Source of the DNA: a virus
Taxonomy: Duplodnaviria; Heunggongvirae; Uroviricota; Caudoviricetes
IMG/VR virus record: IMGVR_UViG_2711768009_000005
Strand: one strand, 5' to 3'
Length of the DNA stretch: 13,792 nucleotides
In this document: piece by piece, positions 12,001-13,792 of the stretch
Position numbering within the stretch: position 1 is the first letter of the stretch
Layout: each line of letters starts with the position of its first letter
Program-made: the position numbers

Positions 12001-13792
12001 GAGCGGCTCTACAAGTTCAGCTGGGGCCCACCAACATAGTCAGACTGGGCCCAGAACGAATAGCGGGAGTCAACCTACTGGAATGTTTCCGGCAGGGAGT
12101 ACTCAAGTTAGCGGGACTAATCAGGTTGGTATCAGTGGCTCATTAACCAGTGGCACCTCCCAATGGGTAGGTAAATCATCTTCAGAAGGAAACCATACAC
12201 ACTCACTGTCCGGCACAGCAGCATCTGCGGGTGCACACGCGCATACTGTCGGTATTGGTGCTCATACGCACTCTGTTGCGATTGGTTCACATGGACACAC
12301 CATCACCGTTAACGCTGCTGGTAACGCGGAAAACACCGTCAAAAACATCGCATTTAACTATATTGTGAGGCTCGCATAATGGCATTCAGAATGAGTGAAC
12401 AAGCACGGACCATAAAAATTTATAACCTGCTGGCCGGAACTAATGAATTTATTGGTGAAGGTGACGCATATATTCCGCCTCATACAGGTCTGCCTGCAAA
12501 CAGTACCGATATTGCACCGCCAGATATTCCGGCTGGTTTCGTGGCTGTTTTCAACAGTGATGAGTCATCGTGGCATCTCGTTGAAGATCATCGGGGTAAA
12601 ACGGTTTATGACGTGGCTTCCGGCGACGCGTTATTTATTTCTGAACTCGGCTCATTACCGGAAAATGTCACCTGGTTATCCCCGGAAGGGGAGTTTCAGA
12701 AGTGGAACGGCACAGCCTGGGTGAAGGATACGGAAGCAGAAAAACTGTTCCGGATCCGGGAGGCGGAAGAAACAAAAAACAGCCTGATGCAGGTAGCCAG
12801 TGAGCATATAGCGCCGCTTCAGGATGCTGTGGATCTGGAGATCGCAACGGAGAAAGAAACCTTGTTGCTGGAAGCTTGGAAAAAGTATCGGGTGTTGCTG
12901 AACCGTGTTGATACATCAACTGCACCGGATATTGAATGGCCAGTAGCACCTATAGGGTAAATTCGTAATGATTACCTAAATACGTTATTCTTTTGTTAAA
13001 AAAGTGATTTTGCTATAGGTAGGGAGTATGTTCTTGGATTAAGAATAAAAAATCGCCATGAAAGAGCTTCATGGCGAGTACATAAACGTACAAAATGTGA
13101 TGAAAGTAGAGTGGCGTAAGCCACTATATTAAGATATGACAATAGCGAAGAAAAGTAAATAACATTTTATGGACGTTTAATTGTTAATTATAAAAACTAG
13201 AGTGCCCGATATTGTTTATCTTGCTTTAAAATAATGTACTCAAACCAAATTTTTGAGCTAAAAGCTCAAATAATATAAATGCAATAATAATGTTTAATAA
13301 GACAATTAGCTTGCTTTGTATTTTCATTTCGGAATACTGTTAAGTAACTTTGATGACCCTAACAATAGATCGGAATTTTCTTAGAGTCAATGGTCACTGT
13401 TTTTGCTTGCAAAGCAAATGTTTTGGTGGTTATAAGTCGTCTTAATATAGTCACGCATGCAACTTGTTCCATGCGGAGATTAAAGATTGGAATATAACGC
13501 GAAGATGGAATTAAATTACATTTGCAATAATTAATTTATTATTACTCAATAATTACCGATATTATTATTGTAAATTAATCATTAGAATGCAAAAAGAAAT
13601 GTAACGGCAAAATAAGAGGACGATAGCTGAGAAAAAAGCGTGCTTTCCCAATCTGGGGCAAATCACGTCTGAATGACACCTGAAAACAGGTGGTAGCCTC
13701 AAGAAGGCTGGTGATGCTGCCAACTTACTGATTTAGTGTATGATGGTGTTTTTGAGGTGCTCCAGTGGCTTCTGTTTCTATCAGCTGTCCCT

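Follow-up and report, generated by a model that had tools for sequence, protein, structure and literature searches.

A leftward intrinsic terminator directly downstream of a lambdoid tfa gene and the compact cassette that it probably ends

Directly downstream of the tail fibre assembly gene tfa, in a stretch of viral DNA of 13,792 nucleotides (IMG/VR record IMGVR_UViG_2711768009_000005; the whole stretch is called the window below), there is a hairpin at 13041..13077 that has the sequence of an intrinsic, Rho-independent terminator on the minus strand. The gene tfa is the last of a rightward late operon, so what does a terminator for leftward transcription do at this place? We think it rather probable that the hairpin terminates a compact leftward moron with a promoter of its own. 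The best-supported reading is a cassette of ~310 nt, convergent with tfa, that consists of a promoter-like site, an open reading frame (ORF) for a peptide similar to the small membrane protein YncL, a 3' untranslated region (UTR) and the terminator. Leftward transcription would start at a sigma-70-type promoter (13390..13362), pass through the 33-codon ORF (13327..13226), which would specify a small inner-membrane peptide of the YncL family, continue through a 3' UTR of ~150 nt, and halt at the hairpin and U-tract (13077..13047), so that the leftward RNA would stay out of tfa and stf, to which it is antisense. The last ~80 nt may act also as a 3'-end-derived small RNA (sRNA), either processed out of the transcript or transcribed from a promoter within it near 13139-13166. 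The terminal ~80 nt are more conserved than the ORF and have the layout of an Hfq-type sRNA, which is why a small RNA is proposed at all.

The terminator hairpin

The minus-strand RNA from 13077 to 13041 reads 5'-UCGCCAUGAA-GCUCU-UUCAUGGCGA-UUUUUUAUUCUU-3'. Positions 13077..13068 pair with 13062..13053 in a perfect stem of 10 bp, five of them G-C, around a loop at 13067..13063; a possible 11th pair, G-U, would reduce the loop to 3 nt. UUUUUU follows directly 3' of the stem on the minus strand (13052..13047), and then AUUCUU. A stable stem-loop containing G+C, followed by a U-tract on the transcribed strand, is an intrinsic terminator by the usual sequence criterion. An earlier note on this DNA had described just such a perfect 10-bp stem with a U-tract solely on the minus strand, and the sequence, its folding and a custom scan all bear this description out. 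The calculation of folding energy that the note had suggested for the minus-strand hairpin has now been run; the energy is -15.0 to -15.2 kcal/mol, a stability that not one of 200 dinucleotide-shuffled sequences reaches (z = -6.0 to -6.1). The custom scan searched both strands of the window for perfect stems with a minimum of 10 bp and, 3' of them, 5 or more U within 8 nt. The hairpin, at 13077..13053, is its single match, and 200 windows simulated with a first-order Markov model contain none. In a generic terminator scan of the window the hairpin ranks second, behind a plus-strand site after lom.

Which strand does the hairpin serve? The plus-strand RNA folds into the identical stem (-15.2 kcal/mol), but it has AAAAAA before the stem and GUACAUAAAC after it, and no U-tract, so that only the minus-strand reading is terminator-like. 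The view that the hairpin faces leftward transcription only, and not the late operon, therefore stands, and the sequence analysis confirms the hairpin as a predicted one-way stop signal for leftward transcription. It had also been claimed that no comparable plus-strand terminator follows tfa, and this too holds: no plus-strand terminator-like site was found 3' of tfa in the window, nor between tfa and the next gene in phage ev099, which is free of insertion sequences (IS) there.

Natural variation points to the same strand. The stem is invariant across 28 distinct variants, and its top pair alternates between G-U and A-U, a pairing that survives in the minus-strand RNA alone. In place of U6 some variants carry U5 or UUUCUU, tracts that are still T-rich on the minus strand. 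By itself such a terminator is ordinary; it is the unit that it appears to end that deserves attention.

Promoter, reading frame and conserved 3' end

A sigma-70-like promoter, TTGACT-17 nt-TATTGT, is predicted on the minus strand at 13362..13390, with a start near 13355. Both hexamers are retained (TTGACT ... TATCGT) in a divergent group of relatives, loci L007 and L036, that is ~79% identical to the window overall, and the sequence further upstream diverges. The promoter would fire, and the cassette would be expressed in lysogens; that this would happen independently of Q antitermination is a reasonable inference from the strand and the predicted promoter. A near-perfect palindrome, TTTGCTTGCAAAGCAAA (13402-13418), precedes the -35 hexamer by ~10-30 nt and might serve as an operator or as the site of an activator; the L007/L036 group does not conserve it. 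The promoter is also overlapped by a 37-aa ORF (13359..13472, minus strand), which the record of phage PhiR70_1 annotates as "hypothetical protein" while missing the adjoining 33-codon ORF. The 37-aa ORF is probably no gene, since in the divergent group it is hit by an indel and its sequence has changed heavily.

The 33-codon ORF (13226..13327, minus strand; translation MKIQSKLIVLLNIIIAFILFELLAQKFGLSTLF) is not annotated, and its product is predicted to be a small membrane protein with a single helix. Start, length and stop are all retained in the divergent group. Eighteen nucleotide differences separate the window from L007/L036 within the ORF, 10 of them at codon position 3 and 1 at position 2; they change 12 codons, 7 synonymously and 5 non-synonymously. 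When 18 substitutions are placed at random, so few amino-acid changes together with an open frame are obtained in ~1 of 10,000 trials (p ~1e-4), in a comparison that involves essentially one divergent lineage and minor variants. Codon-level purifying selection and a preserved reading frame are what one would look for in a coding sequence, and both appear in this comparison; the peptide may be translated. The peptide aligns with positions 1-28 of the 30 in the NCBIfam profile NF000537 (YncL) at E = 1.3e-5 and 25 bits, less than the NCBIfam cut-off of 35 bits, and for this reason we call it YncL-like and not YncL. In BLASTP it is 39% identical to K-12 YncL over 28 aa without gaps (11/28 identical, 18/28 similar; E = 2e-7), and a tblastn search of phage records with the peptide gave no match, probably due to low-complexity filtering. 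Another minus-strand frame, a 48-aa ORF at 12996..13142 that spans the hairpin, was rejected as coding; the natural U5/U6 length variants shift its frame.

The most conserved part of the cassette is a sRNA-like block of ~80 nt at its 3' end (13047..13129, core 13053-13127, minus strand). It is predicted to fold into a 5' stem-loop, AGUGGC-UUAC-GCCACU (13127..13112), a single-stranded stretch of ~20 unpaired nt, CUACUUUCAUCACAUUUU, a small hairpin, GUAC-GUUUAU-GUAC, and the terminator. The fold is stable (-27.1 kcal/mol, z = -5.85), and the block stays an independent domain when the whole predicted transcript of 311 nt is folded. A terminator hairpin with at least six U, preceded by a conserved single-stranded stretch, is the layout of Hfq-type sRNAs, and the block has it in the predicted fold; the block may act as a trans-acting RNA.

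The profile of identity between the window and L007/L036 sets the block apart. Identity is 63% in 12961-13022, rises to 83% in 13023-13052 and to 95% in the block core (13053-13127), drops to 63% in 13128-13225, and is 82% in the ORF (13226-13327) and 70% in 13328-13410, so that the block is more conserved than the ORF (95% versus 82%). Part of the core served as the search anchor, and the remainder is also near-invariant in the 28 variants. A discrete block is also what locus L005 shows, where homology breaks off precisely at the block's 5' edge. The few changes at paired positions are of the wobble type: in the 5' stem-loop U-G replaces C-G, and the uppermost pair of the terminator is G-U in some sequences and A-U in others. 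The minus-strand RNA can still pair at these positions, and the plus-strand RNA would have C-A mismatches there, an indication that selection acts on the leftward RNA. Immediately 5' of the block, a patch at 13139..13166 (minus strand) is identical between the divergent groups at ~24/27 positions, in a segment where identity is otherwise 63%. The patch could be an internal promoter (TTTACT-17-TATCTT, start near 13129), or it could base-pair with the RNA segment where translation of the ORF would begin. RNAalifold predicts this long-range pairing, with one compensatory pair, two one-sided changes, and six pairs that are broken in some sequences.

The cassette travels widely among E. coli prophages. 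It is carried by 827 of 5426 complete E. coli genomes (~15%) and by four phage records; full coverage is absent in 11 of the 827, and two exact-pattern scans, in which each bacterial species was represented by a single genome, revealed none beyond the E. coli strain collections. It occurs in prophages at several sites: the ydfJ junction (Qin-like; L004 and L005), intS/tRNA-Arg (L007), sitABCD (L008), and next to the AraC-like gene at the bio-side attachment site. Because the hairpin and cassette stay constant while their right-hand neighbours differ, the hairpin is unlikely to end a long transcript derived from pL or int. Over the 750 nt that follow tfa, the window shares 99.5% identity with E. 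coli strain 104 and with numerous other chromosomes, and 98.5-99.2% with the temperate phages mEp332, PhiR70_1 and ev099. The records of strain 104 and of these three phages have no annotation under the hairpin, and the conserved cassette is absent from every annotation record examined, although temperate phages and some 15% of complete E. coli genomes carry it. The AT-rich spacer behind tfa, seemingly "empty", would then be a moron slot. If the cassette is expressed, the accessory repertoire of E. coli would gain a new candidate for a regulatory RNA and, carried by phages, a paralogue of a small membrane protein of the stress response.

Other explanations of the hairpin

Might the hairpin belong to something simpler than a coding moron? 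One could take the block for a stand-alone sRNA gene of ~83 nt (13129..13047) with a promoter just upstream and the hairpin as its terminator, the ORF being separate or incidental. We consider this unlikely. In its favour, the block is the most conserved segment, the adjoining patch with TTTACT-17-TATCTT is conserved as well, and the architecture resembles that of known prophage sRNAs, the weak Rfam alignments with MicC and Esr41 being driven by layout. At the O169:H41 locus, L005, homology ends exactly at the 5' edge of the block, which there lies beside unrelated upstream DNA without the ORF. L005, however, is a rare deletion-type variant, one of those few genomes without full coverage; the putative internal -10 is not conserved in register; and no terminator separates the block from the codon-constrained ORF that precedes it by ~100 nt on this strand, so that read-through from the ORF promoter into the block is to be expected. 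One might also extend the unit instead of shortening it, as the earlier note did when it deduced from the hairpin a convergent leftward unit with an accessory gene module like the b region of λ. The hairpin would then end a longer leftward accessory operon, or read-through from pL or int, and insulate the tail genes, an explanation that we find quite improbable. Leftward genes do occur in suitable places: ea47, ea31 and ea59 are on the minus strand right after tfa in λ, sitABCD runs leftward ~670 nt right of the hairpin in BH100N, and int and xis are leftward further right in ev099; any polymerase that came from the right would be stopped at the hairpin. The BH100N-type junction with sitABCD is rare (20 genomes), and among the matches listed the classical uropathogenic E. 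coli strains match sitD only. In the window and its closest relatives no leftward ORF right of the hairpin is conserved except the one of 33 codons, and the next annotated gene, for an AraC/YdeO-like regulator, is on the plus strand. The variable right-hand context of a constant hairpin and cassette argues against a longer operon too, and in the window an IS1 cuts the cassette off from the DNA further right. What survives of the earlier deduction is a leftward unit that has a promoter-like site of its own and ends at the hairpin; its size is ~310 nt and it has one supported ORF. The gene module must be given up, since the ~650 nt from the hairpin to the IS1 end (13710) hold no other supported ORF.

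Two further explanations concern what the RNA does. Could the hairpin be a 3' stabiliser or processing barrier of the late (tfa) mRNA, or a conserved junction for lambdoid recombination, with no terminator role? The equal stability of the stem in plus-strand RNA would allow the former, and the late transcript, with no plus-strand intrinsic terminator after tfa, must end somehow; mosaic breakpoints adjoin the block in L045 and L005, as the latter would have it. Both ideas seem hardly credible, as the U-tract is on the minus strand only and its variants remain T-rich there, and as the tolerated variants, C-G to U-G and G-U/A-U, are mismatched, C-A, in plus-strand RNA. Alternatively, the cassette might be toxin-like: the peptide would be toxic by depolarising the membrane, and the conserved 3' UTR would pair with the initiation region and so keep the mRNA from being translated, in the manner of hok mRNA. 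Production of YncL, a stress-induced small inner-membrane protein, does depolarise the membrane and lower viability (PMC12542507), and the missing Shine-Dalgarno sequence would fit tight translational control. Minimum free energy and consensus folds both pair the initiation region (~13340..13321) with the 3' UTR patch, and the compensatory change is from A-U to G-C. Of the 15 long-range pairs, however, the broken ones number six, and the pairing gains nothing from the covariation term. The peptide is hydrophobic, but no antisense RNA gene is recognisable near the ORF, nor was a promoter seen for one overlapping it; the peptide has no toxin-family match in Pfam, PHROGs or NCBIfam; and the block seed pairs with the initiation region of its own unit no better than shuffled sequences do. 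We give the toxin-like explanation little credence.

The moron with a small-protein ORF and a terminal RNA domain thus remains the explanation that we prefer, and several points weigh against it besides the low YncL score. The 20 nt before the ATG of the ORF (UUCCGAAAUG) contain no Shine-Dalgarno-like sequence. The exact peptide occurs twice among ~15 billion predicted proteins, both times unnamed, and gene callers nearly always miss the ORF, which is thus effectively unannotated. The candidate internal promoter is weak, and its register is not kept in the divergent group. The block shows no compensatory covariation, because the sequences are too similar. RNAduplex comparison of the single-stranded stretch with six mRNA regions (the unit's initiation region, its ORF and 3' UTR, K-12 yncL, the 5' region of the AraC-like gene, lom and stf) gave no pairing better than that of shuffled seeds, and no target is proposed. 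Finally, an island of 95% identity between flanks of 63% could be due in part to recent recombination, and not to selection; phage genomes are mosaics, and L045 is one with a breakpoint near the block, so that recombination may contribute to the conservation signal.

A bolder extension of the preferred reading would make the moron two-in-one, in that a single transcript would yield both a membrane-depolarising YncL paralogue and a 3'-end sRNA that rewires host mRNAs. With no plus-strand terminator after tfa, Q-antiterminated late transcription would cross the cassette antisense, and the cassette would be switched off in lytic growth in an excludon-like manner. The peptide could then, for example, exclude superinfecting phages, abort infections or make the lysogen dormant under stress. 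We hold this picture to be distinctly doubtful.

Genomic setting and known relatives of the cassette

The window comes from a lambdoid prophage and covers the last part of its late operon, with J (5075-8572), a lom-like gene, stf (9218-12379) and tfa (12379..12960, plus strand). The product of tfa matches Pfam Caudo_TAP (E = 4.6e-44), and relatives annotate it as tail fibre assembly protein. N-masked stretches at 519-975, 1627-2152 and 10301-10623, 1306 bases together, lie inside a tape-measure-like ORF and stf, and the ORF lists and composition are affected for these two genes. Strong plus-strand terminator-like hairpins occur within the late operon at 8595-8612, just after J, and at 9186-9207, just after the lom-like ORF; the one at 8595-8612 is a palindrome that has a T-rich tail on either strand. 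Terminators thus appear to bracket the accessory lom gene.

On the right, homology to IS-free relatives ends at 13709, and the left inverted-repeat end of an IS1 occupies 13710..13792 (plus strand). It bounds the intergenic region of the window, and E. coli strain 104 has an IS1 at the same site, with an annotated IS1A family transposase. From 13625 rightwards (13625-13709) the sequence is ~97-100% identical to the end of a different prophage, which in E. coli 042 and numerous further strains adjoins zinT. Where relatives have no IS (L003 6665-7000; L006 4001-4340), the region runs into a partial tRNA-Ser, a 3' half that ARAGORN does not call and that we take, by eye, to be serU-like. It looks like a captured attachment-site remnant that marks the right boundary of the cassette. 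The next annotated gene rightward in mEp332, ev099 and strain 104 is ~1.5 kb from tfa and encodes an AraC-family regulator of 247 aa (L003 7506-8249, plus strand), closest to YdeO (148 bits, cut-off 348) and GadX and below the cut-offs of both; presumably it is akin to the acid-stress-type regulators on other E. coli prophages. About 700 nt upstream of this gene have no annotated gene. Beyond it, in ev099, are transposase remnants and then the leftward int and xis.

Is the block one of the known sRNAs? The sole Rfam match of the window at gathering level is to IS009 (RF02111; 12722-12920, plus strand, 218 bits), and it lies wholly within the 3' part of the tfa coding sequence. This "sRNA family" match is conserved tfa sequence, which explains the IS009 matches reported near prophage sRNAs such as PasB. 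In the block no family of Rfam 15 reaches threshold, and MicC (RF00121; 22.8 bits against a threshold of 90) and Esr41 (RF02676; 15.6 bits against 102) were rejected as identities on the strength of these scores. A literature search with strings of the block sequence found no paper. Hfq-dependent sRNAs encoded by prophages of pathogenic E. coli include PasA-D, AgvB, AsxR and Esr41 (Pearl Mizrahi 2021, PMC8550237; Zhu 2026, doi 10.64898/2026.05.13.724894; Tree 2014, PMC4104026). Like these the block is ~80 nt long, lies in a lambdoid prophage near tail genes, is restricted to Escherichia, and has a conserved single-stranded stretch just upstream of a terminator with a U-tract; it differs from them in being the 3' end of a predicted small-protein mRNA. 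PasB was the natural candidate, its neighbourhood being enriched for IS009 (doi 10.64898/2026.05.13.724894) and IS009 lying in tfa here. PasB is likewise on the strand opposite to the tail genes and is flanked by IS009 matches, as the block is. It lies, however, between the tail genes I and J in E2348/69, that is, between a tail assembly gene and gpJ, a gap of only 60 nt in the window; its probe sequence, AATCCCGCAGTGATCGCGGAGCT, is absent from the block, and the identity was rejected. AgvB, AsxR and EcOnc03 were rejected as unrelated in sequence; of the EcOnc RNAs the comparison covered EcOnc03, the remaining Sakai ones being published as coordinates only.

The likeness to YncL is closer. The 33-aa peptide and K-12 YncL (b4598, 31 aa) are similar in length and share a single hydrophobic helix, an N-terminal M-x-x-x-S-K/R-x-I/V-V-L-L/I-N motif and a C-terminal K/R-F-G motif. 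Their settings differ: K-12 yncL is at the chromosomal patD-ortT locus and has a Shine-Dalgarno sequence, AAGGUGG, whereas the cassette ORF is prophage-borne, downstream of tfa and without one, and the long conserved 3' UTR with its intrinsic terminator has no similarity to the region downstream of K-12 yncL. CpxQ and SroC are 3'UTR-derived sRNAs that share the terminator of their mRNA. KilS, a 3'UTR-derived sRNA of the Rac prophage, targets yncL (PMC8175672). The block would resemble all three as a conserved RNA domain at the very 3' end of a coding transcript that uses the intrinsic terminator of that transcript.

How far does the parallel with λ, which the earlier note had drawn, extend? 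In λ too a leftward gene, ea47, follows tfa on the minus strand, 129 nt after orf-194. The λ tfa-ea47 gap has no terminator-like site, however, so that the parallel is one of orientation only. Nor does the cassette have homology to the ea genes, its one 33-codon ORF contrasting with the three large genes ea47-ea31-ea59; between tfa and att/int no large leftward ORF was found, as the minus strand holds short ORFs only and the next annotated gene is on the plus strand. The cassette can also be compared with the morons lom and bor of λ and with its b-region genes as a class, which are accessory units at the edge of the late operon with a promoter and a terminator of their own, as predicted here; lom in the window is also followed by terminator-like sites. 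The cassette would be a prophage moron in which a small membrane protein similar to YncL is combined with a candidate sRNA at the 3' end.

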